DNA of 64,000 nt from an uncultured Actinomycetes bacterium (GCA_903873185.1 CAIQNN010000036.1:3639-67638); one strand, 5' to 3'. Positions 30,504 through 47,856 are shown, counted from the first letter of the stretch. A program made the numbers and translations. Notes: generated by a model not told the origin, from the sequence alone.

Positions 30504-30532
30504 AAATAGTCGTTATTGCCTGAATTGCCAGA

Positions 30533-31309: not shown

Positions 31310-32136
31310 TATTGTTTGGCTCGCTCCTGGGCAATCCAGTACATAACTACGGCAGTTGCAACACTGGCATTAAGTGATTCAACGGTGGACTCCATTGGAA
31401 TTGAAAGTACCAAGTCGCACTTTTCGCGAGCAAGGCGCGAAATTCCCTTACCTTCAGAGCCAACAATTAAGTAAACCGACTCGTTAGCCAATGAGAATGC
31501 GGCAAGTGATTCATCGCCTTCCGCATCTAGACCGACCACGAAGAAGCCAGCTTTCTTTGCATCTTCGATAGAGCGAACCATGTTGGTGACCTGCGAAATT
31601 GGCAATCGTGCTGCAGCACCTGCCGAAGATTTCCATGCCGAACCAGTCATTGAAGAGCTGCGACGTTCTGGAATAACCACACCATCGGCACCAAACGCCG
31701 CGGCACTTCGAACGATTGCACCTAAGTTATGTGGATCGGTGACGCCATCCAAGCCAATGATTAACGCTGGTTTTTTGGCATTTGAAATCAAATCGGTAAA
31801 AGGCTTGTATTGAAATGGCTTGATAACCAATGCAATACCTTGGTGCATGGTGGTACCAGTAAGTCCATCAATAACCCCGCGCGAAACTTCTTTGATGATC
31901 AAGTTCTGATTCTTGGCCAACCGAATTGCCTCAGCCATGCGCTCATCAATTTCAACTCGTTCGGCAATAACCAATTCCTTTGCCGGAATTTTGGCGCGAA
32001 GTGCCTCAACGACGCTATTGCGACCGGCAACAGCATCGGCATTGGGCCTTGTTTCTAGTCTGGTGGCGGGACGGCGATTGGAAGTGCGCTTTGGCGCTGC
32101 TTCGGCTTCGCGACGTTTTCTACCGGGACGCATCAA
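31309..32136 (-). CDS. rlmB: SpoU/TrmH-family 23S rRNA 2'-O-methyltransferase (RlmB-like)
   Basis: 275 aa. Basic N-terminal tail, SpoU substrate-binding domain and methylase motifs (LDGVTDPHNLGAIVRSA, GSEGKGISR). Follows cysS, as in mycobacteria. Confidence 0.85.
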   Translation of the reverse strand: MMRPGRKRREAEAAPKRTSNRRPATRLETRPNADAVAGRNSVVEALRAKIPAKELVIAERVEIDERMAEAIRLAKNQNLIIKEVSRGVIDGLTGTTMHQGIALVIKPFQYKPFTDLISNAKKPALIIGLDGVTDPHNLGAIVRSAAAFGADGVVIPERRSSSMTGSAWKSSAGAAARLPISQVTNMVRSIEDAKKAGFFVVGLDAEGDESLAAFSLANESVYLIVGSEGKGISRLAREKCDLVLSIPMESTVESLNASVATAVVMYWIAQERAKQ

Positions 32137-33518: not shown

Positions 33519-33991
33519 AACTTGGTCACCAATGCGCTGGCCATCACGAAAATTCCTTCGCCGCGTCCAGTAAAACCAAGACCATCAGTTGTCGTTGCTG
33601 CAATCGAAACGGGCGCACCCAGCGCTTCGGTAAGAATGGCTTGTGCTTCAGCTCGCCGCGGTCCAATTTTTGGTTCCACTCCAACGATCTGCAGCGCAAC
33701 GTTATTAATTGAAAAATTATTTTCGGCAACAAATTTTCGCAAGTGCTCCAGCATCTTTACACCTGATGCGCCGGCCCATTCCGGCCGATCAACCCCAAAG
33801 AGCTCACCGATATCGCCCAACTGGCAGGCAGATAGGACGGCATCACAGAGCGCATGGACTGCAGCGTCGCCATCGGAATGTCCGACCAAGACCCTAGCTT
33901 CTGGCCAAATTAGGCCAGCCAGATGGCAGGGCCCGCTCTGCCCGTATTGGTGGGCATCAATTCCGACGCCAGTTCGATGGTTATCGATCAA
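33515..33991 (-). CDS. ispF: 2-C-methyl-D-erythritol 2,4-cyclodiphosphate synthase
   Basis: 158 aa. GVGIDAHQY and GHSDGDAAVHAL. The TTG start (33991..33989) overlaps the ptsH stop (TTGA). Confidence 0.92.
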   Translation of the reverse strand: MIDNHRTGVGIDAHQYGQSGPCHLAGLIWPEARVLVGHSDGDAAVHALCDAVLSACQLGDIGELFGVDRPEWAGASGVKMLEHLRKFVAENNFSINNVALQIVGVEPKIGPRRAEAQAILTEALGAPVSIAATTTDGLGFTGRGEGIFVMASALVTKL

Positions 33992-34266
33992 TGATCAACG
34001 CTTTCCACGATTACTTTGAGCGCAGCGGCAACTGAATCTTCTTCTGGACCGTCTACTTGAACGACGATCTGGTCGCCGAACTTAACTCCAAGGGTCATCA
34101 CGCGCAGCACGCTGGCGCCATCGACCGCGGCGGATAGCTCCCCGCTCTCAGAAACCTTAGCCAAACTCACCTTGCAGCCTGAGCTTTTGGCGCTGGCAGC
34201 AAAAAGAGCGGCTGGGCGCGCATGGAGTCCTACGGCGGCGGCAACGGCAGTTCGAAATTCTTTCAT
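33988..34266 (-). CDS. ptsH: Phosphocarrier protein HPr
   Basis: 92 aa. Active-site His context VGLHARPAA. Confidence 0.88.
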   Translation of the reverse strand: MKEFRTAVAAAVGLHARPAALFAASAKSSGCKVSLAKVSESGELSAAVDGASVLRVMTLGVKFGDQIVVQVDGPEEDSVAAALKVIVESVDH

Positions 34267-34347
34267 GGGTAAATCGTATCTGTAACGAAAGTAGTGTTTA
34301 ATGTGAACATCTATTCAAGCACTTGCACGAATGTGAAAGTAGGGAAA

Positions 34348-35349
34348 ATGGTCGCACAGTCCTTATTGATGGGTCATCCGCTCTCTTCGCCGGATCATGC
34401 CCGCCATGCCTTGCTATATATGTATCGTATTCGCAAATTCGAAGAAGCAGTAGAAGATCTATTCGGACGCGGCATGATGCACGGCACAATGCATTTATCG
34501 ATTGGGCAAGAAGCAGGTCCTACTGGAATGTGTTTGGCACTTCGTTTGGAAGATCAAATTACCTCCACCCACCGCGGACATGGCCATTGCATTGCAAAAG
34601 GCGCTGACCTAACGCGAATGATGGCGGAATTATTGGGAAAGAAGATCGGTTATTGCGGTGGCCGTGGCGGCTCAATGCACATTGCCGACGCTGAAACCGG
34701 AAACCTGGGTGCTAATGGGGTGGTTGGTGGCGGTATCCCAATCGCGGTTGGCGCAGCGCTAGCTTCAAAAATGCAACATAAGGGCACAGTGGCGGTCTCC
34801 TTCTTTGGCGATGGCGCTATGAATGAAGGTGCCTTCCATGAAGCTGCGAACTTGGCTGCCATTTGGAAACTGCCCGTAATTCTCTTTTGCGAAAATAATC
34901 ATTACGGAATGAGCTCTTCGACCGAAAAGGCATTTGCAATTGATCGCTTGGCTGATCGTGGCCTCGGCTACGGAATTCCTGGTGTCACCGTGGATGGCAA
35001 TGACGTCGTTGCCGTTTATGAAGCCTCTGAAGCTGCAGTTGCCCGCGCACGAAATGGCGAGGGTCCAACTTTGATTGAAGCAATTACTTATCGTTGGAAG
35101 GGACATTCGCGCTCGGATAAGAATTTGTATCGATCTAAGGAAGAGATTGACGAATGGAAAGATTTAGATCCAATCCCGAAATTCATTCATCGCGTTCTGG
35201 AAGCGAATCTTTTGCGTCAGGATGAAATTGATGCAATCCAAAAGCAAGCGACCGATCAGATTATTGAAGCGGTTAACAATGCTGCCGCAGCTGAGTCGGC
35301 CGAACCTTCGGGATTGCTCGAGGCAGTATTTAAGGCGGTAAGCGCATGA
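34348..35349 (+). CDS. acoA: TPP-dependent acetoin-dehydrogenase-type E1 alpha subunit
   Basis: Start set at ATG 34348; the track's GTG at 34294 is less likely. AcoA-type motifs [22 protein letters not shown] and the TPP motif [19 protein letters not shown]. Confidence 0.85.
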
Positions 35350-36344
35350 GCGATCGTATGTTGACCATGGCCGAAGCTCTGCGCGAAGCAATGGGTATCG
35401 CGATGGAGGAACGACCAGAAGTGTTCATCCTTGGCGAAGATATTGGAATTTACGGCGGCGCATTTGGCGTTACCGGCGATCTTTACCATCGCTTCTCGCC
35501 GCTTCGGGTACTAGATACCCCAATTTCAGAATTAGGAATTGTTGGTGCTGCTGTTGGCGCAGCGCTCTCAGGTATGCGTCCCATAGTCGAAATTCAGTTC
35601 TCGGACTTCACGGCACAGGCAATGGATCAGATTGCAAACCAAGCCGCGAAGATTCACTTCATGCTTGGCGGGGCGTTGCATGTTCCCCTAGTTCTTCGCA
35701 CCCCACAAGGTTCCGGAACTGGCGCTGCTGCTCAACATTCGCAAAACTTAGAAACTTGGTTTGCCAACGTTCCTGGGTTAAAAGTGGTTGTTCCATCTAA
35801 CCCGGCTGATGCAAAGGGACTGCTTCTCTCTGCGATTGATGATCCGAATCCGGTTATCTTCCTGGAACACAAATTGCTCTACAAGATTCCTGGTCGTGAT
35901 CCAGTTCCGGAAGGCGCCATCCGAATTCCGCTCGGAGTTTCCAAAGTTGTTCGCACCGGAAAAGATCTCACTTTGGTTGCAACCGGAATTATGGTTAACA
36001 AGGCTTTCGAAGTTACCGAAAAGTTGGAAGCAGAAGGAATTTCAATCACGTTGATTGATCCGCGAACGATTTCGCCTTTGGATATGTCACCGATTCTTGA
36101 GTCGGTCGAAAAGACTGGTCGCCTTCTTGTAGTTCAAGAGGGTCCATCTCATGGTGGCTTCATCAACGAGGTCATTGCCCGCGTAAGCGAGAGTTCCAGT
36201 TTTGGTTCCCTCATTGCCCCAATAAAACGACTAGCGGGGATGAACATTCCAATTCCATATGCGCCACAACTAGAGAAGGCCGCCGTTCCGCAGGTAGCAG
36301 ATATTGAAGTTGCGGCCCGCAATCTAGTTAAGGAATGGCGATGA
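35346..36344 (+). CDS. acoB: Acetoin-dehydrogenase-type E1 beta subunit
   Basis: 332 aa with an ATGA overlap onto E1 alpha. Transketolase-like pyrimidine-binding and C-terminal domains ([16 protein letters not shown]). Confidence 0.85.
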
Positions 36345-37429
36345 GTTTCCGCTATCCAGTAGTCATGCCGAAGATGAGCATGACTATGGAGACCGGGGAA
36401 CTAATTCTCTATCACGTTAAACCTGGCGACCGGGTTAGCTCCGGCGATGTGCTCTTTGAAGTTATGACTGACAAGATCGATATGGAGGTTGAGGCTCCGA
36501 CTGATGGCGTCATCGAACAATTAATCGGGGAGATCGGCATCGATATTCCAATCGGTACCCCGGTTTTAATTATGCAGACTGATACCGAAGTCATGGCTTT
36601 TGATTTTGGCGGCGAAGCGCCAACCATCCCGGCTCCACCAGAGGCGATCGTGGAACCAGTTGTTCTTCCAGAGCCCGTAATAGTTCCAGAGCCAGTTGTT
36701 GTTCCCGAACCCGTAATAGTTCCAGAGCCAGTTCGAGCTGAAGTCGGCGTCAAAGCGGTACCAAAGGCTCGTATTGTGGCCGCCCAGAAGGGGATCGACC
36801 TGCAATCGGTTGTAGCGACCGGTCCAGATAACACCATTATGTTGGCTGATGTAACACAAATCCGACCATCGGATGAAATTCAGCGGCGCCAGAGCGCAAA
36901 TAAAGCGCTGATTGCAAAAGGCTTGGAAATGACGCGGTTAATTCCTCAAAGTTCGTTCTCGCGTACTGTCTCCACTTCGGTCGATACCGCAGCTTTGCTT
37001 GCCGCATGGGCAAGTGTCTTGCGTTCGCGCCCCGAGCTAAATATTTCTCCTAAAGATGGCAGCGAACTTTCCTTCGTGGGTGTAGCCGTAATTATCGAAT
37101 CAAAATATGGGAGCGCGCTGCCCGTATTTAAGGATCCGGATTTACTTGGCGCCCTTGAACTTTCGGAATTGGTTTCAACTACAACCAGCGCAGCTGAAAA
37201 TGGAAAAGTTCCACTTTCCATGTTGAGCGGCGCGACCACGATAGTCTTTGATCTGCGTCGCTATCACATGAGCGCCACCACGCCACTTCTATTCCCAAAT
37301 CAGCTGACCTCGATAACTGTTGGCGAAAATATTGATGGCACGCAAATCATTTCGCTGACAATTGATCTGCGTTATTGTGACTTTTATGATGGCGCACTTT
37401 TGCTCGACCACCTTATTTCCGTACTCTAA
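36341..37429 (+). CDS. Lipoyl-domain E2-like protein with a degenerate acyltransferase domain
   Basis: Lipoyl-Lys motif [12 protein letters not shown], a PEPV-repeat linker and a PSBD-like segment [16 protein letters not shown]. The C-terminal domain is short, and the canonical DHRxxDG reads [10 protein letters not shown] (His to Leu). ATG 36341 gives an ATGA overlap; ATG 36335 is the alternative. Confidence 0.75.
36668..36739 (+). repeat. Imperfect 2 x 36 nt tandem repeat in the E2 linker ([12 protein letters not shown] / [12 protein letters not shown])
   Basis: ccagagcccgtaatagttccagagccagttgttgtt followed by cccgaacccgtaatagttccagagccagttcgagct. Confidence 0.85.
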
Positions 37430-37444
37430 CGAAAAGAGATTTGC

Positions 37445-39139
37445 GTGATCGCTCTTAATGGTGTTGCCGCAAGCTCTGGTGCGGCGCTGGGACAATTCTT
37501 TCTGCTGACCACTGAAATACCAGCAACCTCCCCTGCACCATCATCGCTAACTCCTGACGAAGAAAAACGATCTCTGACTGCCGCTATTGAATATGTCGGC
37601 GCCGATCTATCCGAGCGAGCAGAGCGTTCAACTGGCGAACTTCGCGACATTTTGTTAGCGGTCAGCGAAATTGCAACTGACCCAGCGCTGATCGAAGAAG
37701 CTCACACTTTTATCGATCAAGGCCACACCGCCAGTTTTTCGATCTCGCAGGCAACCAATATCTTCAAAGAACTCTTGGAATCATCCGGTGGTTATCTGGC
37801 CGAGCGTGTAAGCGACGTCGCCAATATCTGCGATCGCATTCTCTGCCGAATCGCGGGCGTGGAGTATCCAGAAATTCCTCACTTCCAACAGCCAACCATC
37901 TTGATCGCTCGTGATCTCTCGCCAGCCGACACCACTGATCTGCAATCAGAACAGATCCTGGCAATAGTCACAGAGGGCGGTGGACCAACGAGCCATACTG
38001 CGATTATCGCCAGATCTCGCAGCATTCCGGCAGTTGTTGCTTGCCCTGGAATCGTGGAATATGCCAAATCCCATTACGGGCAACTGCTCGCAGTCGAAGC
38101 GACAACGGGCGAAGTTATCTTCGATCCACCAACTGAAATTCAAAGTCGAATCATCGCCAAGATCGAGCGAATTCGAAAACGAAAAGAGCAACTGGTCACC
38201 CGCACTCCCTTTGGCTACCAAACGGTCGATGGCCGGACAATCCCGATCTATGCAAATATCGGTCGAGTTGCAGATACCAAAGTTGCAATTGAAGCGGGCG
38301 CTGATGGTGTTGGGCTGCTTCGAACCGAACTTCTATATTTGGATCGCGCGACCGCGCCTTCACTCGATGAACAAATTGAAATTTATACCCAACTCTTCCA
38401 ACCATTCGCAAGCCAAAAAGTTGTGATTCGAACTCTGGATGCCGGCGCTGATAAGCCAATGGCATTTATCAATTTCGATGATGAACCAAACCCAGCACTT
38501 GGAGTTCGCGGCTACCGAACCATCCACGAGCACGAAGATCTCATGCGCGTTCAGCTTCAAGCAATTGCGACCGCAATCAAAAATACTGGAACCGATGTAT
38601 GGGTGATGGCCCCCATGATCACGCTTCCAGAAGAGGCCCAAAATTTTGTTGACCTTGCACGAAGCTTCGGAATCAAAACTGTCGGCGTAATGATTGAAGT
38701 GCCTGCGGCGATTTTTCACGCCGATGAGATAACTAAAATCTGCGATTTTGTTTCGATTGGCACCAATGATTTAGGACAGTATCTCCACGCCGCTGATCGC
38801 GAGTCAGCACCACTGGCAGGATTTAACGATCCATGGCAACCGGCATTGCTCCGAGCCGTTCATTTGGTAGCCCAAGCCGGACTTCGCAACAACTGTCCAG
38901 TCGGTGTGTGTGGCGAAGCCGCTTCAGATGCCGCGCTTGCAGCCGTTCTGGTGGGACTTGGAGTCTCCAGCCTCTCATGCAGCGTTTCGACCTTACGCGA
39001 CGTGGCAGCTGGCGTAACGGCCTTAAGTTTTTCCGATCTTCAATTGGCGGCGGTCGCTGCGCTTGGTGCGCCCACTTCGCAAACTGCTAAAAATTTGGCG
39101 AGGGAGCATCTTCTTGCCCTCGAAGAGTTAGGTTTATAA
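37445..39139 (+). CDS. ptsI: PTS enzyme I (PEP-protein phosphotransferase)
   Basis: 564 aa with a GTG start 15 nt after the E2-like stop. Phospho-His motif GGPTSHTAIIARS and PEP-utilizer motif SIGTNDLGQY. Confidence 0.92.
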   Translation: MIALNGVAASSGAALGQFFLLTTEIPATSPAPSSLTPDEEKRSLTAAIEYVGADLSERAERSTGELRDILLAVSEIATDPALIEEAHTFIDQGHTASFSISQATNIFKELLESSGGYLAERVSDVANICDRILCRIAGVEYPEIPHFQQPTILIARDLSPADTTDLQSEQILAIVTEGGGPTSHTAIIARSRSIPAVVACPGIVEYAKSHYGQLLAVEATTGEVIFDPPTEIQSRIIAKIERIRKRKEQLVTRTPFGYQTVDGRTIPIYANIGRVADTKVAIEAGADGVGLLRTELLYLDRATAPSLDEQIEIYTQLFQPFASQKVVIRTLDAGADKPMAFINFDDEPNPALGVRGYRTIHEHEDLMRVQLQAIATAIKNTGTDVWVMAPMITLPEEAQNFVDLARSFGIKTVGVMIEVPAAIFHADEITKICDFVSIGTNDLGQYLHAADRESAPLAGFNDPWQPALLRAVHLVAQAGLRNNCPVGVCGEAASDAALAAVLVGLGVSSLSCSVSTLRDVAAGVTALSFSDLQLAAVAALGAPTSQTAKNLAREHLLALEELGL

Positions 39140-39254
39140 GAAGTTACTAATCGGTATCTAATTCTTAAGATTTTTCTCAAATAGTGGCGAAATATCCTTG
39201 AAACAATATGTTGCTTGCACCACACTTAGCGAAATGTTCAATGACTGAACGGAT

Positions 39255-40229
39255 GTGACGATTTTGAAGCAACGCGAAACGGAGCTCATCCTTCGCGCTG
39301 CCAGGCTCTATTACGAGGAGCATCAATCGCAAGACCAAGTCGCCTCCCTCATGGGAACCTCGAGATCGAACATTTCCCGCATGCTCTCCGATGCCAAGCG
39401 CCTGGGATACGTTGAAATTCGAGTCGTAGCCCCTATTACCCGCAACGAGGCGCTTTCATCGCAACTTCAGAATCTCCTGGGAGTCAAAGAGGTCCAGGTA
39501 ATAACCACGGATAAGAACGAACTTACCTTCAGCGCCGTCGGCCGCGCCGCAGCCACGACGCTCGTTAATAGCCTTAGTAACAATCAAACCATCGCGATCT
39601 CATGGGGCCGAGGTCTAGAAGCCACTGTCATAAATGTACGCAATGAAAGCTTTTCCGGCTTAAAGGTGACGCAGCTGATGGGCTCCCTCTCTTCGGTCAC
39701 CACCTCGGCCAGCGCCGAGGAAGTCGGTCGCAGGCTTGCTAAGAATCTCAATGCTCAGTTCATTCCTTTCCTGGCACCCGTCGTTGTCAGCAACTCCAAG
39801 ACCCGAGATTCCATGCTCGAAGAAGAGAGCATCGCAAAAACCCTAAAAATTGCCCGCAGTGCCGATATCGCACTTATCGGAATCGGATCTCGGACTTCTT
39901 CCTCTTCCGAAATGGTCTTTAGTGAATTTAAATTATCTAAGGCCGAAAAAGATGCGATCTATGACCGCTACGCCGGCGATGTAGCTGCCCGTTTTTACGA
40001 CATCAAGGGCCAAGCCCTAAATTCTAAAATGGATAAATGCGTACTTGGCTTAACGCTTGAAGAGATGTCGGCAATTCCAAAGGTGATCGCAGTTGCTTCT
40101 GGTGGCGAGAAAGTTCAAGGTGTAATCGGCGCAGCTCGTTCGGGAATGATCGATACGTTGATTGTTGACCTGGTCTGCGCAAATTCCATCATCAAATCCC
40201 TAGCCCCATCGGCGGTGAAGAGCGCGTGA
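39255..40229 (+). CDS. SorC/DeoR-type sugar-binding transcriptional regulator
   Basis: 324 aa. N-terminal HTH (QSQDQVASLMGTSRSNISRMLSDAKRLG) and a SorC-type sugar-phosphate-binding domain. Confidence 0.85.
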   Translation: MTILKQRETELILRAARLYYEEHQSQDQVASLMGTSRSNISRMLSDAKRLGYVEIRVVAPITRNEALSSQLQNLLGVKEVQVITTDKNELTFSAVGRAAATTLVNSLSNNQTIAISWGRGLEATVINVRNESFSGLKVTQLMGSLSSVTTSASAEEVGRRLAKNLNAQFIPFLAPVVVSNSKTRDSMLEEESIAKTLKIARSADIALIGIGSRTSSSSEMVFSEFKLSKAEKDAIYDRYAGDVAARFYDIKGQALNSKMDKCVLGLTLEEMSAIPKVIAVASGGEKVQGVIGAARSGMIDTLIVDLVCANSIIKSLAPSAVKSA

Positions 40230-40627
40230 CTTACTTAACCAAACTCCTTTTAGTTATCGCTGCAATGTGGGCATCGCAATTAGCGCTGGCTTACTTGCAA
40301 GCAAAGAAATTCCAAGCTGATCTCAGGTCGCTAAGACAATACGGAACCGTCGCCATTGGTATGGGTGGACGGCGTTATCGCGGTGGGCGGGCATTCGTTG
40401 CTCTGGCTGCCGATGAAAATGGCATGATCGTGACGGGATTGGTCCTTCGTGGGCTAACCGTTTTCGCGAAATCAAAGCCGCTCAATACCTACAACGGATT
40501 CTCACTGACCGACATAATCTCGGGTACCCGAGTTGTACTGGGTGAACCAAAGAAAGTGCAAGAGGCCACACAAATGGCAGCTCAGCACATTCAGGATCAT
40601 CTAGCACGGGTCGAGCAGGGAGAGTAA
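40226..40627 (+). CDS. gutM: Glucitol operon activator GutM-family protein
   Basis: 133 aa. One N-terminal TM, then ...LAYLQAKKFQ...GTVAIGMGG...RAFVALAADENG...GLTVFAK, matching the GutM family pattern. GTGA overlap with the SorC gene. Confidence 0.75.
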   Translation: MTYLTKLLLVIAAMWASQLALAYLQAKKFQADLRSLRQYGTVAIGMGGRRYRGGRAFVALAADENGMIVTGLVLRGLTVFAKSKPLNTYNGFSLTDIISGTRVVLGEPKKVQEATQMAAQHIQDHLARVEQGE

Positions 40628-40655
40628 TGATCGAGAAATTCCAGATGGATCGATC

Positions 40656-40671
40656 ATTGATGTACATCAAT
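40656..40671. promoter_or_regulatory. Perfect 16-bp palindrome ATTGATGTACATCAAT (candidate operator)
   Basis: Lies in the 73-nt gap between gutM and srlA, 30 nt upstream of the AGGAGG-GTG start of srlA. Confidence 0.35.
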
Positions 40672-40700
40672 CATGTCTTAACTTACTTAGGAGGTGTCTA

Positions 40701-41300
40701 GTGTTCCTGCATCAACTGATCACGCTATCAGCTGTAACAGTGGACAAACCAACGGGTGTTCTTGGCGCGTTGGCAACTGGCGCTGAAGACTTCATCAAGG
40801 TCTTCAACAAAGGTGGAACGGTTCTTCTCAGTCTTATGGGTGGAATCCTTCCAACGTTGATCGTTCTTCTGACTGCAGTAAATGCACTCGTAAGAATTAT
40901 CGGCGCAGAACGAATCGAAAATCTAGGCAAGGCTGCATCACGTCCTGGTCTCCAGTGGTATCCAGTTCGTTACATCATCCTTCCTTTTGTTGCCGTATTC
41001 GTTCTAACAAACCCAATGGCATACACAATGGGTCGCTTCCTTCCAGAACGCTTCAAGCCTGCGTTCTACGACTCCGCAGTTTCGTTTGTGCACCCAATCC
41101 TGGGAATTTTCCCACACGCTAACCCAGGTGAACTTTTCGTATACCTCGGTATCGCAACAGGTATCAAGGAACTCGGCTTCGGCTTGGGTGACTTGGCTAT
41201 CCGTTACCTACTTGTAGGTCTTGTTGTCATCTTCATCCGCGGAATCGTTACTGAACGAATCACCGCGCGAATGATGGCTAAAGCCGAAAGGAGTGCATAA
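40701..41300 (+). CDS. srlA: PTS glucitol/sorbitol-family EIIC component (SrlA-like)
   Basis: 199 aa. Collinear with E. coli SrlA as I recall it (FNKGG..., GRFLPERFKPAFYD, FPHANPGELFVYLGIA). Confidence 0.88.
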   Translation: MFLHQLITLSAVTVDKPTGVLGALATGAEDFIKVFNKGGTVLLSLMGGILPTLIVLLTAVNALVRIIGAERIENLGKAASRPGLQWYPVRYIILPFVAVFVLTNPMAYTMGRFLPERFKPAFYDSAVSFVHPILGIFPHANPGELFVYLGIATGIKELGFGLGDLAIRYLLVGLVVIFIRGIVTERITARMMAKAERSA

Positions 41301-41302
41301 CC

Positions 41303-41851
41303 ATGGAAGGTTTCACAAACTTAATCGTACGGATCGGCCGTGGCGTCGGTGGAGTAGTAGGAACTCTCTACCAGGCAGGTCGTGATTCGGTAGATACCGT
41401 AATCCGTAACGTCATTCCATTTATGGCGTTTATCTCCTTCATCATCGGTTTGATTCTGACAACCGGTATTGGTAACTGGATCGCTAAGGGACTAAAGGGC
41501 TCTGCCTCTTCACTTCCTGGCTTGCTACTTATCTCTATCGTCTGTGCAATTCCAATCCTGTCTCCTTTGCTTGGACCAGGTGCTGTTATTGCTCAGATCG
41601 TCGGAACCTTGCTCGGTGTTGAAATTGGTAAGGGAAATATCCCTGCGCAATACTCACTACCAGCACTATTCGCTATCAACCCACAGGTTGGTTGCGACTT
41701 CATTCCAGTAGGTCTAGCTCTCGGTGAAGCCGAGCCTGAGACGGTCGAAATCGGTGTTCCCGCGGTTCTGTTCTCCCGCGTTATCACCGGTCCATTGTCC
41801 GTAGTCATCGCATACTTCGCCAGCTTCGGCCTGTACCACACCAGTAAGTAA
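41303..41851 (+). CDS. srlE: PTS Gut-family EIIC' membrane domain (C-terminal half of SrlE as a separate gene)
   Basis: 182 aa. Matches the SrlE C-terminal part (LYQAGRDSVDTVIRNVIPFMAF..., LLGPGAVIAQIVG, LPALFAINPQVGCDFIPVGL). Confidence 0.85.
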   Translation: MEGFTNLIVRIGRGVGGVVGTLYQAGRDSVDTVIRNVIPFMAFISFIIGLILTTGIGNWIAKGLKGSASSLPGLLLISIVCAIPILSPLLGPGAVIAQIVGTLLGVEIGKGNIPAQYSLPALFAINPQVGCDFIPVGLALGEAEPETVEIGVPAVLFSRVITGPLSVVIAYFASFGLYHTSK

Positions 41852-41861
41852 GCACGATCGA

Positions 41862-41893
41862 AACCAAGGTGCGGGGCAACTCGCACCTTGGTT
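41862..41893 (+). other. Perfect 12-bp-stem hairpin inside the PTS operon
   Basis: aaccaaggtgcg-gggcaact-cgcaccttggtt, 11 nt after the EIIC' stop and with no following U-run. A 137-nt AT-rich gap precedes the EIIB gene. Confidence 0.6.
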
Positions 41894-41988
41894 ATCGCAA
41901 GGCAGTACGTTGAAACTCACATCCAAATTTAATTTTTACAACATATTCTTGGTTATCAAGATTCTTAACTAGTTCAAGGAGAACAAAA

Positions 41989-42360
41989 ATGGGCGAATAC
42001 AAGAGCGTCACTATTTCAGCCGGACGAGGCGGTTGGGGCGGTCCACTAACCATCACACCTACCGATGAAAAGCCGTACATCTATTCGGTAACCGGTGGCG
42101 GTATTCACGCTGTTGCGCAACGCATCGCCGACATTACCGGTGGAATTCCTTTCGATGGTTTCAAGAGCAGCGTGCCCTTCGACAAGATTGCCGTTGCCGT
42201 TATCGACTGTGGTGGAACTGCTCGAGTTGGCGTTTATCCAATGAAGAAAGTTTTAACCGTTGATATTCATGCGACCAGCCCTGCCGGACCGCTCGCCAAC
42301 TTTATTACCAAAGAACTCTTTGTCTCTGGCGTAAAAGCGGATGACATAAAGGAAGGTTAA
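41989..42360 (+). CDS. srlE: PTS Gut-family EIIB domain (N-terminal half of SrlE as a separate gene)
   Basis: 123 aa. GRGGWGGPLTITP and the phospho-Cys context VAVIDCGGTARVGVYP (E. coli: VAVIDCGGTLRCGIYP). Confidence 0.88.
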   Translation: MGEYKSVTISAGRGGWGGPLTITPTDEKPYIYSVTGGGIHAVAQRIADITGGIPFDGFKSSVPFDKIAVAVIDCGGTARVGVYPMKKVLTVDIHATSPAGPLANFITKELFVSGVKADDIKEG

Positions 42361-42363
42361 GTT

Positions 42364-42732
42364 TTGTCTAATCTTGTCTATGCAACAACCATTACAGCAG
42401 TTGGAGAACTTGTTCCCGATTTTCGGGAACAAGGAGTCTTGGTCTTCTTTGGTGAAAATGCACCCATTGAGCTTCACGAATTTTCAATCCTTCACAAACC
42501 TGATGTCGAAGTGCGAGCACCACTAACCGGTGACACCATTCGATTATCAAATAATGCATTTAACGTTTTAGCTGTGGGATCGGTCGCCAGCGACAACTTG
42601 CTCAACCTTGGCCACCTGGATCTAAAAGCAAATGGTCTTCCCGAGGCAGAGCTGCCTGGAGATGTAAACGTAGAAGCAGGCGAATTACCGATGGTCAAAG
42701 TAGGCGACCGTCTTGAAGTTTTTTCCGCCTAA
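42364..42732 (+). CDS. srlB: PTS glucitol/sorbitol-family EIIA component
   Basis: 122 aa with a TTG start. AVGSVASDNLLNLGHLDLK parallels E. coli SrlB AVGSVAEDNLRELGHVTLR (phospho-His). Confidence 0.85.
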   Translation: MSNLVYATTITAVGELVPDFREQGVLVFFGENAPIELHEFSILHKPDVEVRAPLTGDTIRLSNNAFNVLAVGSVASDNLLNLGHLDLKANGLPEAELPGDVNVEAGELPMVKVGDRLEVFSA

Positions 42733-42771
42733 TCGTTTTTCAAGCAGGACAACAGAAAAGAGATAAAAGAA

Positions 42772-44064
42772 GTGGCATATTCCTCGAAACTCAAAGCGCA
42801 CGCTGAAAAGCTGGGCCGCGATGTAAAAATTGCATTAGTGGGCGCTGGCCAGATGGGCCATGGTTTTGGCTGCCAAGTAGATCGCATGCCTGGTTTAACC
42901 GTCTCGCTAGTAATAGATATCGATCCGGCTCGAATTATGGCGCTTTACGCTGACTTAGGTGAAAACAATCCAGTAATCAGCACCGACCAAAATGAAATTG
43001 CGGCAGCGATTTCTGCCGGCAAGCGAGTCGGAACCACCACCTCTGCATTCCTATCAGAACTGCCAATCGACTTTGTTGTCGAAGCAACTGGTGTCCCAGA
43101 AATTGGCGCCCAAATCACTTACTCCTGCTTAAAAGCCAAGATGGATGTCGCCGTATTGAATGTCGAAATGGATGTAACCATTGGGCCGCTGCTTCATAAA
43201 ATTGCGGTCGAAAATGGCGTGGTTTACACCGTCTGCCATGGCGATGAGCCAATTGAAGCCAAAGTGCTAGTTGACTTTGCGCGCGATCTAAATTTTGAAG
43301 TTATCGCCGCCGGCAAAGGCAAGAACAATCCATTTGAACCGCTCAGCAACCCTGATTCAGTTCGGGCAACTGCAACTGCAAAAAACATGAACCCAAAGAT
43401 GCTTTGTTCTTTCACTGATGGCTCAAAGACCATGACCGAGATGGTGGCGCTTTCAAATACCACCGGCATTCCGCTTTCAAAGCGTGGAATGAACGGCCCA
43501 GCTGCCACTGTTAAAACCCTTCAAAATGTCTTTGCTCCCAAAGAAGATGGTGGAATTTTGGATAAGAAGGGTGTCATCGATTATTGCACTGGCGATGTTG
43601 CCCCTGGTGTATTCGTCATCGTAAAGAGCGATTCCAAATACATCAATCATGAGATGAGCTACCTAGGTATGGGCCCTGGCCCTTACTTCGCGCTCTACCG
43701 TCCGTATCACTTAGCTTCGGTTGAAGCTCCACTATCGGTCGCCCGAGCTGTTGTAGACCGTGAGTCATCGCTATTCGCTACTCACTTAATCTCTGAAGTT
43801 GTAGCAATGACTAAAAAGGATTTAAAAGCTGGCGACAAGATCGACGGCATTGGTGGCTACACCGTTCGTGGTTACGCCGACATCGCCGCAGATGCCCGTC
43901 GCGATAATTTGGTACCGATTGGGCTGATTCAAAATGCGATTGTCAAAAACGATGTTCCAGTTGGAACACTTCTGACTTACGATGATGTAGAACTCGATGC
44001 AACTAGCTTGATAGTGAAACTGCGCAAAGAACAAGACGATATGGGCCTCACCTACGCTAGCTAA
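42772..44064 (+). CDS. NAD(P)-dependent oxidoreductase, homoserine-dehydrogenase-like Rossmann domain plus C-terminal SAF domain (COG4091-type)
   Basis: 430 aa with a GTG start. KIALVGAGQMGHG dinucleotide fold and a SAF-like C-terminal region (KKDLKAGDKIDGIGGYTVRG...VPVGTLLTYDDV). Occupies the operon position of SrlD. Confidence 0.7.
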   Translation: MAYSSKLKAHAEKLGRDVKIALVGAGQMGHGFGCQVDRMPGLTVSLVIDIDPARIMALYADLGENNPVISTDQNEIAAAISAGKRVGTTTSAFLSELPIDFVVEATGVPEIGAQITYSCLKAKMDVAVLNVEMDVTIGPLLHKIAVENGVVYTVCHGDEPIEAKVLVDFARDLNFEVIAAGKGKNNPFEPLSNPDSVRATATAKNMNPKMLCSFTDGSKTMTEMVALSNTTGIPLSKRGMNGPAATVKTLQNVFAPKEDGGILDKKGVIDYCTGDVAPGVFVIVKSDSKYINHEMSYLGMGPGPYFALYRPYHLASVEAPLSVARAVVDRESSLFATHLISEVVAMTKKDLKAGDKIDGIGGYTVRGYADIAADARRDNLVPIGLIQNAIVKNDVPVGTLLTYDDVELDATSLIVKLRKEQDDMGLTYAS

Positions 44065-44369
44065 TCGGTTTCTTCTTTAGGATCTGGAATATGGCTAGTT
44101 AGTCCAAGCTCTTCCATTAAACGTCGCTGGCGTTTGGTTAGCGGGTCGCGAACCTTCTTGGGTTTTGCGGCCCGTTCGCTTTGATTAACTGAAACTTCGT
44201 CGTGAACAACTGGCCGATTCCCTCGCAGCCCAAGCTCTTCCATCAATTCCTCTTGGGCTGGCGTAAATAGCCCCTGAGAGCTCCGCTTTGCAGCATGTTT
44301 TGCCTTTATCTTTGCCGCTCGCTCTTCTGGAGTGTGCTGGGCAAAGCCAAATTTGCTCCGAAGTGACAT
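44061..44369 (-). CDS. Small highly charged protein with two LMEELGL repeats
   Basis: 102 aa. TPAQEELMEELGLRG and TKRQRRLMEELGLTS. Lys/Arg/Glu-rich with no TM segment. Confidence 0.55.
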   Translation of the reverse strand: MSLRSKFGFAQHTPEERAAKIKAKHAAKRSSQGLFTPAQEELMEELGLRGNRPVVHDEVSVNQSERAAKPKKVRDPLTKRQRRLMEELGLTSHIPDPKEETD

Positions 44370-44395
44370 AACGGCAAGTCTGACACAATTGCCCC

Positions 44396-45097
44396 ATGAA
44401 ATCCGAAATGCGCGTTGCGGTAGTGGTTCTCGCCGCCGGCTCGGGTTCGCGTTTTGGACATGTAACTAACAAGGTCTGGTTGCCTCTGAGCGGACGACGA
44501 ATCATCTCCCGATCCATCGCAAACGCCGCCAGGAGCTTCCGTGGCTGCCGAACCATTTTGGTGATCAGTCCAGATGATTCCGAACTCGCCCGTGCCACCT
44601 TGGAGCGCGAAGTTTCTAACATCACCGTTGAAATAGTTCTCGGCGGGGCAACTAGGCACGACTCGGAATACCGAGCGCTTCAATACTTGGCGCCGCAAAT
44701 CGAAGCTGAGGAAATCAATGTGGTCCTGATTCACGACGGTGCTCGGCCTTTGGCGACCAGTTCGCTCTTCAAGAAGATTGCCGAGGCGGCACATCGTCAC
44801 GGAGGTGCACTTCCTGCAATTCGAGTCTCCGCAAAAGAGATGGATATTCAAAGCAACGAAGTGGTCGTGCGGGTCCAAACCCCACAGGCCTTTTCGGCGC
44901 AGGAACTGCTAACGGCGTATCGTCAGGCTTTCATAGATAACTTTCATGGCACCGATACCGCCGCCTGTATGGAAAAATATTTTCCAGATATTCATACAAT
45001 GGCAGTCTCAGGTGAAGTTGCCAATGTGAAAATTACCTATCCCCAAGATTTAGCGATTGCCGAACATGTTTTAGAGAAGCGGAGGTACAAAGATTGA
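44396..45097 (+). CDS. ispD: 2-C-methyl-D-erythritol 4-phosphate cytidylyltransferase
   Basis: 233 aa. VLAAGSGSRFG, VVLIHDGARPL, VQTPQAF, NVKITYPQDL. ATG 44408 is an alternative start. Confidence 0.9.
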   Translation: MKSEMRVAVVVLAAGSGSRFGHVTNKVWLPLSGRRIISRSIANAARSFRGCRTILVISPDDSELARATLEREVSNITVEIVLGGATRHDSEYRALQYLAPQIEAEEINVVLIHDGARPLATSSLFKKIAEAAHRHGGALPAIRVSAKEMDIQSNEVVVRVQTPQAFSAQELLTAYRQAFIDNFHGTDTAACMEKYFPDIHTMAVSGEVANVKITYPQDLAIAEHVLEKRRYKD

Positions 45098-45405
45098 GCA
45101 ACGAAGAGCTCGATGTGCCACTTCACTGCACGCAATGTCAACAAGAGACAGTGCATCACCTTCGCTATGCCGGCCGACTCTTGGTATCCACAACCTGTTC
45201 AATCTGCAAAACGCAGGTAAAGCATGAAGATCATGATTTGCGTCTCCATTACACAAAAGATCTACAGCATCGAATTGCTACGAAACCTTGGCGGCTTTGG
45301 AAGCGATTTTGGCGGGCACCAAAGGCGGTCTTCTGGTCCTTTCCAAAGAAAGCGCTAGGGCAACCATTCAAGATTTGGCGCGAGTATCGCAATATTGGGC
45401 GCTAG
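45094..45405 (+). CDS. Small zinc-ribbon protein with a basic Trp-rich tail
   Basis: 103 aa. CTQC...CSIC pairs. The TTG start overlaps the ispD TGA (TTGA). Confidence 0.5.
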   Translation: MSNEELDVPLHCTQCQQETVHHLRYAGRLLVSTTCSICKTQVKHEDHDLRLHYTKDLQHRIATKPWRLWKRFWRAPKAVFWSFPKKALGQPFKIWREYRNIGR

Positions 45406-45421
45406 TTATTAAGATCAGACT

Positions 45422-46678
45422 GTGCCTAATGAGAATTTCAAACGCCAGTTTCCGCGCCCTAAAGATCTAACTCCACTTCTTCAATTTCAACTTCCCACAA
45501 TTCACCGAAAGCGGCGCCGGCTGGAAAAGGCGCTTACGATCTGGGACCTTCGAGAGATTGCAAAACGGCGAACCCCAAAGGGACCATTTGATTACACCGA
45601 TGGTGCCGCCGAGACTGAAGTTAGTTTGGAACGTTCACGTCAGGCATTTCTAGATATTGAATTCCAGCCCAATATTTTGCAAGACGTTTCCAAGATCGAT
45701 ATGTCGCGTAAAACGTTGGGGGAAACCTTCGCCTTACCTTTTGGCATTGCTCCGACGGGTTTTACTCGAATGATGCACTCCGAAGGTGAACGTGCTGGCG
45801 CTCGCGCTGCCGAAAAATTTGGCATTCCATTCACACTTTCAACACTTGGAACAACAACAATCGAAGATGTAGTTGCAGCCGCTCCCAATGGCACCAATTG
45901 GTTCCAGTTATATATGTGGAAAGACCGCGAAGGCAGCATGGCATTAGTTGAACGTGCGCAAAAGATGGGCGTTAAGAATTTAATGTTGACGGTTGACGTT
46001 CCAGCCTCCGGTTACCGAATGCGCGATTACCGAAACGGCTTGACTGTGCCACCGCGATTAAATGCATCCACGATCGCCAACGCGCTACCCCGCCCGGAAT
46101 GGATTTGGAACTTTCTCACCACCCCGCCGATTAGTTTTGCCTCGTTATCAAACTGGCCCGGCACCGTTGGTGAGTTATTGGATTACATGTTCGACCCAAC
46201 CATGACATTCGAAGATTTGAAATGGGTGCGCAAGCAGTGGAAGGGTACTTTGACCATCAAGGGTATTCAAACGCTCGAAGATGCAAAGCGCTGCGCCAAA
46301 TATGGGGTAGATGCAGTGTTGCTTTCAAATCACGGTGGCCGCCAGCTTGATCGTGCGCCAGTTCCATTGCATTTGTTAGGAGCAGTTCGTAAGGAGCTAA
46401 AGAGCGACCTCGAAGTTCACTTGGACACCGGCATCATGCACGGCGCCGATGTTTTGGCGGCTATCGCTCATGGTGCGCAGTACACCTACGTTGGCCGCGC
46501 TTATCTCTATGGCTTAATGGCTGGTGGTCAAGAAGGCGTAGAACGTGCACTTGAGATCATGAAGACTCAAATGGCTCGTTCCATGAAATTGTTGGGTGTC
46601 AGTTCATTGGATGAATTAGAACCCAAGCACGCAAAATTCTTGGCTACCCATCAAGGTCTTGGATCACTGCCGAAGTAA
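45422..46678 (+). CDS. FMN-dependent alpha-hydroxy-acid oxidase/dehydrogenase (LldD-like)
   Basis: 418 aa with a GTG start. Signature SNHGGRQLD and a TIM-barrel FMN dehydrogenase layout. Confidence 0.85.
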   Translation: MPNENFKRQFPRPKDLTPLLQFQLPTIHRKRRRLEKALTIWDLREIAKRRTPKGPFDYTDGAAETEVSLERSRQAFLDIEFQPNILQDVSKIDMSRKTLGETFALPFGIAPTGFTRMMHSEGERAGARAAEKFGIPFTLSTLGTTTIEDVVAAAPNGTNWFQLYMWKDREGSMALVERAQKMGVKNLMLTVDVPASGYRMRDYRNGLTVPPRLNASTIANALPRPEWIWNFLTTPPISFASLSNWPGTVGELLDYMFDPTMTFEDLKWVRKQWKGTLTIKGIQTLEDAKRCAKYGVDAVLLSNHGGRQLDRAPVPLHLLGAVRKELKSDLEVHLDTGIMHGADVLAAIAHGAQYTYVGRAYLYGLMAGGQEGVERALEIMKTQMARSMKLLGVSSLDELEPKHAKFLATHQGLGSLPK

Positions 46679-47353
46679 TTAACGCGCTACCGTTTGTTGC
46701 CAATGCAAGAACGACTCCAATAGCGATAGTTCGTCTTCGGAATTCACGCGAATTGATTCTGGATCAGAATCCACGTAACCAATTCGCGCTGATTTTGTCA
46801 GTGGCAAGAACCAACCAGTACATTTCTTGGCATCCTGTAACTTAAAATCAATGGCGCTCATTCGGTAAATCTCTGGTGTTGAAATCCGACGAATCGAAGT
46901 CCGATCGATCGTGTACTCAATTAATTCGGCTTCAGATACCGATTTCAAAGTTTCTGTAAATGCCGAAGCTGCCCGGACCGCATCCACTTCGGTCAGCAGC
47001 GCTTCAAGCGTGCGGTGAAATTGTGCCAACCTGGTCAGCGGTCGATTGGAATCATGTACTGCAACCAGTTCAAAGAGCGAGCGCTCTGGGGCTAATGCAG
47101 CAGCAAGCTCGATTGGGTTACTGGGATCGCAAATCAAAGGGATGAAATCTATTTTGGCGCCGACCAATTGAGTAACCACGGCATCGGAAAGATTGCCCGG
47201 CATGGCAACACTAATGGCAGATTTTTGCCCCGTCGCCCGCGCAAAATCACGGGCAACAGTGGCAGCGCAAACCAGGACTGAACTTTCGCCAAGTTTGGCG
47301 AGCGCCGTCGCCGAAGTCACGGCAAGAATGACCTTTAGCGGTGGAATACTCAC
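46679..47353 (-). CDS. IspD-fold paralogue lacking the nucleotide-binding signature (degenerate cytidylyltransferase-like)
   Basis: 224 aa. Retains VAVHDSNRPL, IDRTSIRRISTPEIY and SIRVNSEDELSLLESFL. The N-terminal AAGxGxR(x)G...K motif is replaced by ILAVTSATALAKLGESS, and NxK(V/I)T reads SIRVN. Sits in the syntenic ispD slot after carD. Confidence 0.7.
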   Translation of the reverse strand: MSIPPLKVILAVTSATALAKLGESSVLVCAATVARDFARATGQKSAISVAMPGNLSDAVVTQLVGAKIDFIPLICDPSNPIELAAALAPERSLFELVAVHDSNRPLTRLAQFHRTLEALLTEVDAVRAASAFTETLKSVSEAELIEYTIDRTSIRRISTPEIYRMSAIDFKLQDAKKCTGWFLPLTKSARIGYVDSDPESIRVNSEDELSLLESFLHWQQTVAR

Positions 47354-47373: not shown

Positions 47374-47856
47374 TTAAGAAGCTAGAACCTCGTCGAGGAT
47401 GATCCCGGCTTTTTCTTCATCAGTACGCTCCGCGAGCGCCAATTCCGAGACGAGAATCTGCTTGGCCTTGGAGAGCATTCGCTTCTCGCCGGCAGAAAGC
47501 CCACGATCTAAATCACGACGGTAAAGGTCGCGAACAACTTCAGCTACCTTGATGACATCACCAGAGGCGAGCTTTTCGACATTTGCCTTGTAGCGGCGAG
47601 ACCAGTTGGTTGGCTCCTCGGTATATGGCTGACGCAGTACATTGAAGACCTTATCCAGGCCGGCGCTGTCAACGACATCGCGAACGCCAACAAGATCGAC
47701 ATTTTCGGCTGGAACTCGGACGGTGAGATCGCCTTGGGCAACCTTTAAAACTAGGTAAATCTTGTCTTCGCCTTTGATGGTCCGGGTCTCAATAGCTTCT
47801 ATGAGAGCCGCTCCGTGATGGGGATAAACAACGGTTTCGCCGACCTTAAATGACAT
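47374..47856 (-). CDS. carD: RNA polymerase-binding transcription factor CarD
   Basis: 160 aa. [25 protein letters not shown]. Confidence 0.95.

Follow-up and report, generated by a model that had tools for sequence, protein, structure and literature searches.

An old interruption of the carD-ispD-ispF-cysS-rlmB unit by a module linked to the methylerythritol phosphate pathway in an uncultured actinobacterium

The conserved unit carD-ispD-ispF-cysS-rlmB has been interrupted long ago in an uncultured Actinomycetes bacterium from which we analysed one stretch of 64,000 nucleotides (GCA_903873185.1 CAIQNN010000036.1:3639-67638; hereafter the window). The stretch is part of a genome of 1.63 Mb (G000), of a lineage that we take to be freshwater acI. 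The 12,691 bp that lie between carD with its adjoining IspD-family open reading frame (ORF) and the run ispF-cysS-rlmB-SGNH, a distance obtained from an ORF map and Pfam scans, are not arbitrary inserted DNA. They form a functional module linked to the MEP pathway (MEP, 2-C-methyl-D-erythritol 4-phosphate), and the presence of this module tracks the loss of dxr and dxs, the genes of the two textbook entry enzymes. The module combines a phosphotransferase system (PTS), a pyruvate dehydrogenase (PDH)-type E1, an enzyme of the DXR-II/DRL type (DRL), and an IspD that we call IspD2; the IspD-family gene next to carD is called ispDlike. That the module, inserted long ago, now serves as the entry into the MEP pathway through the steps proposed below is a joint reading that we hold to be slightly more probable than its denial.

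DXS and DXR are regarded as indispensable for entry into the MEP pathway, and they are considered drug targets. A few pathogens are already known in which DRL stands in for DXR; a natural, widespread lineage without dxs and dxr that nevertheless has ispD, ispF, ispG and ispH would, if the reading is true, represent a third way into the pathway. Alternative routes to DXP (1-deoxy-D-xylulose 5-phosphate) or MEP thereby become directly testable with a defined set of genes. In the literature, no description of this arrangement in acI or Nanopelagicaceae was found. More widely, many bacteria of the abundant acI/Nanopelagicaceae lineage may make isoprenoids without DXS and DXR, either by a salvage route through PTS, DRL and E1αβ or by DXP synthesis, with in addition an obligate heterodimer of an arm-less, catalytic IspD2 and a pseudo-enzyme lending its β-arm across Actinomycetota; this generalization is offered tentatively, and we consider it somewhat doubtful.

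Interruption of the unit and its age

For 20 relatives, a 20-kb stretch around ispF was searched by tblastn with the proteins of the window. The order carD-ispD(-)ispF-cysS-rlmB is contiguous in other genera of the family (G009, G013, G014, G019, G023 and G024; such handles denote genomes, and those with L denote loci or contigs) as well as in other families (G025 and G035), and several contiguous relatives have a fusion of ispD with ispF, in a single frame of about 380 aa. The split arrangement occurs in G001–G008, which belong to the genus of the window, and in G012. Since carD, ispD and ispF are contiguous in other genera of Ca. Nanopelagicaceae, the unit is truly interrupted here. A preliminary description, made from the window alone, had proposed such a split and had named synteny as one way to check it; its coordinates for carD, the ispD-like ORF, the insert and the ispF run all agree with the ORF map and the Pfam scans, and the ancestor-type order in other genera and families means that the split is not universal.

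The same description took the event to be either old and ameliorated or the result of a rearrangement. The first of these fits what was found, as the split is common to 9/9 genomes of the genus and to many other lineages, and the composition of the block matches that of the genome. Its G+C content is 0.498 as compared to 0.496 for the genome, and its tetranucleotide distance to the genome mean falls at the 8th percentile of 169 equal-sized segments, which places it nearer to the mean than 92% of them. The absence of an integrase, of flanking repeats and of a G+C shift at the borders also holds: no integrase was recognized with Pfam among the called genes, and the search for direct repeats at the block borders gave matches at chance level only. 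None of the marks by which a classical genomic island is recognized is present, be it an integrase, a tRNA target, direct repeats at the flanks or an atypical composition.

DRL and the loss of dxr

DRL loci were collected with an alignment of DRL sequences as query against about 185,000 species genomes, which gave 296 relatives, of which 80 loci were kept; nearly all of these come from Nanopelagicaceae, Planktophila or organisms named uncultured actinobacterium. Canonical DXR (PF02670) is present in 30/30 relatives with a contiguous-type genome, against 0/11 in the DRL lineage (the nine genus genomes, G011 and G012) and 0/24 in further DRL genomes tested, so that 35/35 DRL genomes are without dxr. 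The DRL catalytic domain (PF21135) is detected in G011, G012 and 8/9 genus genomes, the exception without a match being G001, which is 72% complete. A DRL_cat protein of G027 was considered as a member of the DXR-II clade and rejected: its identity is no more than 30%, and G027 has dxr as well, so that it was treated as a DLO-type relative. In the genome of the window the dxr site can be inspected directly. The order o458-dxr-rseP-ispG-proS of G023 is replaced by o458, 139 bp and rseP-ispG-proS, and since the contig spans the site this is a clean deletion.

The DRL of the window matches the Brucella enzyme 3UPY over its full length (phmmer, E 2.3e-91, residues 7–424 on 14–435, 40% identity). 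It keeps K191, K193, T229, G121, R320 and Y322; V351 is replaced by Ile, and H250 by Asn in this protein and by Tyr in the consensus. In Brucella DRL, Lys191, Lys193 and Thr229 anchor fosmidomycin and the substrate, whereas Gly121, Arg320 and Tyr322 set DXR-II apart from its DLO relatives (PMC3847144). Homology to the Brucella abortus enzyme (3UPL, 3UPY; Carretero-Paulet et al. 2013, PMC3847144) thus extends to the anchoring residues, and, as in the DXR-II organisms described there, the DRL hosts have the MEP pathway and no DXR-I. The differences are that His250 is not kept, that DRL here ends a Gut-PTS operon, and that many DRL hosts also lack DXS, which is unreported for DXR-II organisms. 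In the survey of PMC3847144 the DXR-II clade had no actinobacterial sequences, those of actinobacteria being placed under DLO1 or DLO2.

DRL is the last gene of the operon sorC-gutM-srlA-srlE-srlB and follows srlB after a gap of 39 nt. With a ratio of nonsynonymous to synonymous substitution rates (dN/dS) of 0.015, it is under stronger constraint than any other gene in dxs-less genomes. A constraint of this strength speaks for DXP being an intermediate still, whether it is made or consumed. Moreover, there are loci that contain DRL, IspD2 and ispDlike only, with neither PTS nor E1, in genomes without dxr, and there DRL must act biosynthetically.

Loss of dxs and the rest of the pathway

The distribution of dxs depends on the extent of the module. 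With the full module (36 genomes), dxs is absent in 24, matched over its full length in 7, and present in 5 as a form of about 600 aa with an internal deletion. Genomes with only DRL, IspD2 and ispDlike (22) include a single one without dxs, 21 with a full-length match and none with the shortened form, and all 30 genomes without DRL have a full-length match. As a raw association between dxs and the full module this gives p = 4.6e-6 (Fisher). When the dxs state is mapped on the DRL tree, parsimony requires 9 changes, and all dxs-less rows except one have the full module. MKE-26, RE-8 and MZLE-14, which have neither dxs nor dxr, are closed chromosome assemblies in a single record. In the genome of the window only 12 bp separate fadB from acn, as compared to fadB-dxs-acn in G023, again a clean deletion spanned by a contig. 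We infer that the presence of the module explains the loss of dxr in all cases and that of dxs in most full-module genomes.

The later genes of the pathway have been kept: ispG was found in 24/24 genomes and ispH in 12/12, and HMG-CoA reductase, the marker of the mevalonate pathway, in 0/12 genomes searched. Retention of ispF, ispG and ispH together with the failure to find HMG-CoA reductase indicates that the lower MEP pathway is used without both textbook entry enzymes. Two genomes, G045 and G046, have dxs between ispF and DRL, in the slot that is held here by the PTS and E1 genes.

Two side observations concern dxs itself. In L131 (8013–9974), and also in L139, both of Planktophila type, dxs has moved into the cluster and the genes form a compact MEP supercluster, cysS< ispF< dxs> DRL> IspD2> ispDlike< carD<. 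The DXS of about 600 aa is found in G011 (C2:301264–301947), G059, G061, G072 and G077, which have the module at a site away from carD. With the frame intact, it misses some 45 residues in the N-terminal domain (profile positions ~185–231), and may represent either a functional form without this loop or a gene that has begun to decay.

The PTS and E1αβ genes

Enzyme I (EI), HPr and all Enzyme II (EII) components are single-copy in the genome and occur in the module only. The EII set belongs to the Gut family (Transporter Classification, TC, 4.A.4), with PF03608, PF07663, PF03612, PF03829 and PF06923 all above their cut-offs, and ptsH has a dN of 0 against G007. As in the enterobacterial srlAEBD-gutM-srlR operon (TC 4.A.4), SrlA, SrlE, SrlB and GutM are present with a regulator adjacent. 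No SrlD of the short-chain dehydrogenase/reductase type is found in the block, and when compared to the gut operon of E. coli it is DRL that sits in the position of SrlD. Further differences from the gut/srl operon are the split SrlE, the presence of EI and HPr in the locus, and a regulator of the SorC type.

Three observations on this PTS stand apart from its role. The split SrlE has a permuted order, with the membrane half first, then a gap of 137 nt and the EIIB half, and this is identical in all related loci. The region 40701–41851, comprising srlA and the membrane half of SrlE, has an unusually low synonymous divergence (dS), 0.04–0.06 against G007 and 0.27–0.36 against G003/G004, as compared to 0.4–1.0 (G007) and >1.3 (G003/G004) for its neighbours, which suggests recent interspecies recombination or a constraint on synonymous sites. 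Between gutM and srlA there is a perfect 16-bp palindrome, ATTGATGTACATCAAT (40656–40671); its sole near-copy in the window, at 33946–33961, with 3 mismatches and located in ispF where it encodes IDAH, was discarded since 7/100 shuffles matched it, which is not significant.

The E1 genes resemble those of pyruvate and acetoin dehydrogenases, with which the module shares a heteromeric, thiamine pyrophosphate (TPP)-dependent E1αβ and an E2-type protein with lipoyl and subunit-binding domains. E1α and E1β are strongly constrained (dN/dS 0.015–0.022). The E2-like protein keeps the lipoyl-lysine motif TDKID and the subunit-binding domain. The acyltransferase motif of E2 enzymes is DHRxxDG; where it is expected, the catalytic His is replaced by Leu, the Pfam match to 2-oxoacid_dh reaches 22.5 bits, which is below the cut-off, and the matches to PDB entries span residues 8–179 only. 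Such a change from His to Leu is as in protein X/E3BP, and it distinguishes the module from the known dehydrogenases, as do the absence of an E3 gene from the locus and the shared operon with ptsI. The E2-like protein also evolves fast (dN/dS 0.11), and differs in length between species; its PEPV-rich linker is encoded by an 18-nt tandem repeat (36653–36742).

IspD2 and ispDlike

The preliminary description had noticed a functional-looking ispD inside the block on the opposite strand. This gene, IspD2, indeed encodes the canonical set of catalytic residues, and it is the only IspD of the genome with a complete set. Across 29 sequences, no variation is seen at G17, R19, K26, G83/G84, D114, R117 and K212, nor in the P-loop and the motifs HDGARP, RVQTPQ, GTDT and NxKITY; the residues described as strictly conserved in IspD are, in E. 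coli numbering, G18, R20, K27, G82, D106, R109 and K213 (PMC11770629). The β-arm of IspD2 is 9–10 residues shorter, with neither the DTxK motif (Thr140) nor an equivalent of Arg157, and the score against TIGR00453 is 151 bits, below the cut-off of 181.

The protein encoded next to carD has the complementary pattern. The Pfam IspD match of ispDlike is restricted to residues 95–176 (profile positions 93–174), its P-loop has become AVTSATALAK, an equivalent of Lys27 is missing and Lys213 is replaced by an invariant Arg. Among 29 orthologues, with a mean column identity of 53%, the invariant residues are R127, F132, E134, L136, K137, D150, R151, P160, E161, I168, W181 and R202, almost all of them in or beside the β-arm (motifs FTETLK and DR). 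D101, R104 and T135, which together with the invariant R151 are equivalents of residues on the MEP side (D106, R109, T140 and R157), are nearly invariant. AlphaFold2 predicts the arm hairpin in ispDlike (pLDDT 89.6) and none in IspD2 (pLDDT ~90), and Foldseek aligns the ispDlike model to IspD structures with TM scores of 0.7–0.8, the highest identities (20–23%) being to mycobacterial IspD. None of the loci examined has a broken frame, and against G007, at a dS of 1.06, the dN/dS is 0.033, as compared to 0.036 for IspD2. The carD-adjacent ispD had been called degenerate in the preliminary description, which is correct insofar as the cytidine triphosphate (CTP) site is gone. The gene is not decaying, as judged from its dN/dS, the intact frames, the invariant β-arm and the recurrence of the pair.

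In known IspD enzymes the arm (E. coli residues 137–159) is both the point of attachment between the monomers of the dimer and part of the MEP site, MEP being bound by Arg157 and Lys213 (PMC11770629), Thr140 bonds to hydroxyls of the methylerythritol moiety (PMC3111433), and the β-meander forms the main dimer interface (PMC5099578). If the arm acts in trans, a heterodimer of IspD2 and ispDlike has exactly one complete active site. In view of this complementary conservation and of the recurrence of the pair beside carD in genomes of 50–75% GC, such a heterodimer is likely. Both paralogues share the fold of homodimeric IspD (E. coli 1INI/1I52, M. tuberculosis 2XWN, B. subtilis 5DDT); the difference is that the residues of a single site are here split between the two. 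If true, this would be a clean case in which a catalytic paralogue and a pseudo-enzyme share the parts of one active site. ispDlike occupies the slot after carD, as does mycobacterial ispD. Its constant location behind carD, its best PDB matches to mycobacterial IspD and its retention through every reduction of the module point to ispDlike as the former resident IspD that was turned into a partner.

The pair is older than the family Nanopelagicaceae. A search of 1.84 billion cluster representatives, with contig look-ups for ten of them, shows IspD2 to belong to a distinct subfamily of IspD, with 98 clusters at E ≤ 1e-30 and the nearest ones at 40–50% identity. Among the 30 nearest clusters aligned, 29 miss the DTxK/Arg157 arm motif, the exception being P0152, which has a canonical arm. 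In five sufficiently long contigs a convergent second gene of the IspD family adjoins carD: the pair is beside carD in L168 (GC 0.51, with EIIB, EIIA and DRL), L171 (0.70), L176 (0.72), L178 (0.71) and L181 (0.75). The shorter contigs L169 and L173 have a convergent partner too. All partners keep HD and DT[LIV]K and lack the P-loop. In the IspD tree, the subtrees of IspD2 and ispDlike are congruent.

As a side observation, 958 clusters (at 90% identity) of the scored candidates belong to the ispDlike family. In NCBI and JGI its members are named 2-C-methyl-D-erythritol 4-phosphate cytidylyltransferase or hypothetical protein, despite the missing CTP-binding residues, and naming them IspD is an annotation error.

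Overlap and probable coupling of ispF with ptsH

The preliminary description had reported that the stop codon of ptsH overlaps the start codon of ispF, and this overlap is real. The minus strand at the junction reads GAT CAT TGA, with the TGA of ptsH at 33990–33988 and the TTG of ispF at 33991–33989. The in-frame TGA two codons 5' of this TTG leaves it as the sole canonical start. The TTGA overlap is conserved in 17 loci, 9/9 from the genus and 8 from other lineages; in more distant ones, a short gap separates a TAA stop from an ATG start. In unfused relatives ispD and ispF are joined by an ATGA overlap, the place of which appears to have been taken over by the ptsH/ispF overlap. Given the conservation of this overlap, co-transcription of ispF with ptsH is likely. 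No sigma-70 site or terminator was found on the minus strand of 30400–34500, and no sigma-70 consensus in 34267–34347, scans that are uninformative for actinobacterial promoters. On the other side of the divergent control region, alignments of E1α from relatives begin at residues 18–23 of the ORF, and the start of E1α is therefore probably the ATG at 34348.

In contig L181, an actinobacterial sequence of 75% GC, ptsH and ispF overlap by ATGA (757–1529), and between ptsH-ispF and IspD2 there is no PTS gene on the contig. HPr may be retained in that organism because translation of ispF depends on its gene.

Arrangements in relatives and history of the module

The 80 DRL loci were sorted into four arrangements. 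In arrangement A the full module lies between ispF and ispDlike-carD, as in the window, and in arrangement B the same site holds DRL and IspD2 only. In arrangement C the full module, including ispDlike, is at another site, and in G011 carD then adjoins ispF directly; arrangement D consists of DRL-IspD2-ispDlike alone at the site of C. The flanks of C and D are identical, with ice-binding/sortase genes at one side and a GNAT gene at the other. ispDlike thus accompanied DRL and IspD2 in their move away from the carD site. The DRL tree takes its root from a single, very long outgroup branch; in it, A is paraphyletic at the base, B falls within A, and D within C. The simplest history would be that the full module was acquired once, at the carD site, after which came partial losses and a single relocation. 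The reverse order, in which DRL and IspD2 came first and the PTS and E1 genes later, was rejected because the reduced forms are nested inside the full-module forms in the DRL tree.

Proposed role of the module and alternatives

The joint reading that we favour consists of the following steps. DRL would replace DXR. The PTS would most likely import and phosphorylate 2-C-methyl-D-erythritol to MEP, or else 1-deoxy-D-xylulose to DXP, and E1αβ would make or cleave the acyloin bond of DXP, thereby linking the pool to pyruvate and glyceraldehyde 3-phosphate (GAP) and rendering dxs dispensable. IspD2 would hold the catalytic site, to which ispDlike, the former resident IspD, would lend its β-arm with the equivalents of Thr140 and Arg157 in a heterodimer. 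Finally, ispF, once coupled to ispD by the ATGA overlap, would now be co-transcribed and translationally coupled with ptsH by the TTGA overlap. According to the title of a paper by Testa and co-workers from 2004 (J Bacteriol 186:473), the sorbitol PTS of Salmonella reportedly transports 2-C-methyl-D-erythritol. This and the formation of DXP by mutant PDH E1, described below, lend plausibility to a link of the module with the MEP pathway. The salvage variant would imply auxotrophy for an isoprenoid precursor, and the lake bacteria would be dependent on methylerythritol or deoxyxylulose from phototrophs. This group of lake bacteria is hard to culture.

An alternative that we consider unlikely, though it deserves serious attention, is that E1αβ acts as a non-orthologous DXP synthase, forming DXP from pyruvate and GAP, with DRL and IspD2 completing an endogenous pathway and the PTS serving for an unrelated polyol. 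Mutants of the PDH E1 (aceE) make DXP in vivo and rescue dxs mutants of E. coli (PMC3424233), a precedent for the formation of DXP by a PDH E1. The strong constraint on DRL in dxs-less genomes is what would be expected if DXP is still an intermediate, and the low dN/dS of E1α and E1β as well as the location of dxs in the PTS/E1 slot of G045 and G046 also fit. However, it would leave unexplained why DRL is at the end of the EII operon, why ptsI is co-transcribed with E1αβ and the E2-like gene and ptsH is coupled to ispF, and why a lipoyl-bearing E2-like protein is retained. Furthermore, G065 has E1αβ without EII genes and yet keeps dxs. The distribution of genes does not discriminate: module genes occur in 24/24 dxs-less genomes, with both E1αβ and EII where the contig reaches (in G078 (L097), G001 and G002 one set or the other falls outside the contig or the fetched stretch), and since the two sets are carried together, PTS uptake and DXP synthesis by E1αβ cannot be separated in this way. 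Variants of the module without ptsI were considered as a means to separate the two and were rejected, as those genomes have another EI elsewhere.

It is improbable that the block is purely catabolic, with a polyol being imported, oxidised or isomerised by DRL and split by E1αβ/E2, and that its position among MEP genes and the loss of dxs are incidental. The layout resembles a gut operon with DRL in the place of SrlD, DXP may be viewed as a methyl ketol of the acetoin type that would suit an E1 like that of acetoin dehydrogenase, and the soil operon L179 includes a full catalytic E2. Against this, the E2 of the window is without the catalytic His, and in genomes that have only DRL, IspD2 and ispDlike, with no PTS, E1 or dxr, the function of DRL must be biosynthetic. 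The losses of dxs are not random either, with only one outside the full-module genomes, and IspD2 is the sole IspD with a complete catalytic set in the genome.

Equally improbable is that ispDlike is a remnant of ispD in slow decay, retained by chance or for the structure of the carD operon, next to an IspD2 that is an ordinary homodimer, since the loss of the CTP loop and the Lys27 equivalent, the change of Lys213 to Arg, an evolution between species that is 2–3 times faster than that of IspD2, and the IspD2-type gene without adjacent partner in L179, all of which it would account for, have to be set against the low dN/dS at a dS above 1, the intact frame in all loci examined, the concentration of its 13 invariant residues in the arm, the joint relocation with DRL and IspD2, the same pair in actinobacteria of 70–75% GC and the confident AlphaFold2 model.

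The joint reading of the module as an entry into the MEP pathway has to face a number of observations that weigh against it. The association with dxs loss reduces to 3 contrasts in an independent-pairs test, which is not significant, and 12/36 full-module genomes keep dxs, which means that the module does not force its loss; G065, mentioned above, is a single case. If methylerythritol is imported as MEP, DRL becomes superfluous for biosynthesis, yet it is the most constrained gene, so that a catabolic or DXP-based explanation would be needed. The non-catalytic E2 fits neither a simple role as DXP synthase nor one in a simple dehydrogenase complex. The heterodimer depends on Thr140 and Arg157 acting in trans on the active site of the partner, as reportedly found by Richard and co-workers in 2001. 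In the soil contig L179, an IspD2-type gene ends an operon of Gut-PTS, HPr, EI, SorC, E1αβ and full E2 genes and has no adjacent partner, which indicates that IspD2-type enzymes may work alone, and one more distant IspD2 member adjoins an FGGY kinase, another counter-example to pairing. Finally, the IspD tree has a three-way split between resident IspD, IspD2 and ispDlike, which does not decide between transfer and duplication as the source of IspD2; its 120 top homologues, examined for a clue to this origin, were of no help since all are orthologues.

Gene content of the block

The features of the block and its borders are collected in Table 1.

Table 1 Features of the interrupted unit and of the module, with positions counted from the first nucleotide of the window
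Feature	Position	Strand	Evidence or remark
SGNH/GDSL hydrolase, last of the ispF-cysS-rlmB-SGNH run	30533..31309	-	Pfam Lipase_GDSL_2, 68 bits; syntenic in relatives
rlmB-type SpoU rRNA methylase	31309..32136	-	Pfam SpoU_methylase, 135 bits
cysS, cysteinyl-tRNA synthetase	32133..33518	-	Pfam tRNA-synt_1e, 391 bits
ispF, 2-C-methyl-D-erythritol 2,4-cyclodiphosphate (MEcPP) synthase, TTG start	33515..33991	-	Pfam YgbB, 163 bits; TIGR00151, 152 bits, above cut-off
TTGA overlap of ptsH stop and ispF start, predicted translational coupling site	33988..33991	-	
ptsH (HPr)	33988..34266	-	Pfam PTS-HPr, 69 bits; single copy in genome
Divergent control region, ptsH versus E1α operon	34267..34347	.	
E1α, PDH-type, TPP-dependent	34294..35349	+	Pfam E1_dh, 302 bits; TIGR03182, 356 bits, below cut-off of 394
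E1β	35346..36344	+	Pfam Transket_pyr and Transketolase_C; NF006667, 349 bits, above cut-off
E2-like protein: lipoyl domain, Pro-rich linker, E1/E3-binding domain, degenerate catalytic domain	36335..37429	+	Pfam
ptsI (Enzyme I)	37445..39139	+	Pfam PEP-utilizers domains; single copy in genome
SorC-family regulator	39255..40229	+	Pfam Sugar-bind, 183 bits
GutM-type activator	40226..40627	+	Pfam GutM, 76 bits
srlA (Gut-family EIIC1)	40701..41300	+	Pfam EII-GUT, 239 bits
SrlE, membrane (C-terminal) half	41303..41851	+	Pfam EIIBC-GUT_C, 161 bits
SrlE, EIIB (N-terminal) half	41989..42360	+	Pfam EIIBC-GUT_N, 168 bits
srlB (EIIA-Gut)	42364..42732	+	Pfam PTSIIA_gutA, 101 bits
DRL (DXR type II)	42772..44064	+	Pfam DRL_cat, 204 bits, and SAF domain
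orf102, small charged protein	44061..44369	-	Weakly conserved, 41–89% identity; no match in Pfam and NCBIfam searches
IspD2	44396..45097	+	Pfam IspD, 137 bits
orf103, small Cys4 (zinc-ribbon-like) protein	45094..45405	+	
Flavin mononucleotide (FMN)-dependent α-hydroxy-acid dehydrogenase, lineage-specific cargo	45422..46678	+	Pfam FMN_dh, 420 bits
ispDlike, predicted pseudo-enzyme of IspD fold in the ancestral ispD slot	46679..47353	-	Pfam IspD, 43 bits
carD	47374..47856	-	97–99% identity within genus; syntenic in all relatives; homologues are CarD_TRCF_RID in related contigs

The small protein encoded by orf103 has a CxxC...CxxC pattern with a basic tail and a dN/dS of 0.021. Its gene is found only in loci with the full PTS/E1 module and never in those with DRL, IspD2 and ispDlike only. 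In L168, L170 and L179, ORFs of 113–128 aa follow the IspD2-type genes in the position of orf103, to which they are likened by position alone.

The junction between orf103 and ispDlike (45422–46678 in the window; 416–2032 in L077) carries a variable oxidoreductase cargo. The oxidoreductase gene is missing between orf103 and ispDlike in G003, G004 and G006, the FMN_dh gene is present in G000 and G007 only, and in G005 and G008 the same spot is occupied by genes for an aldo-keto reductase and a Rieske protein.

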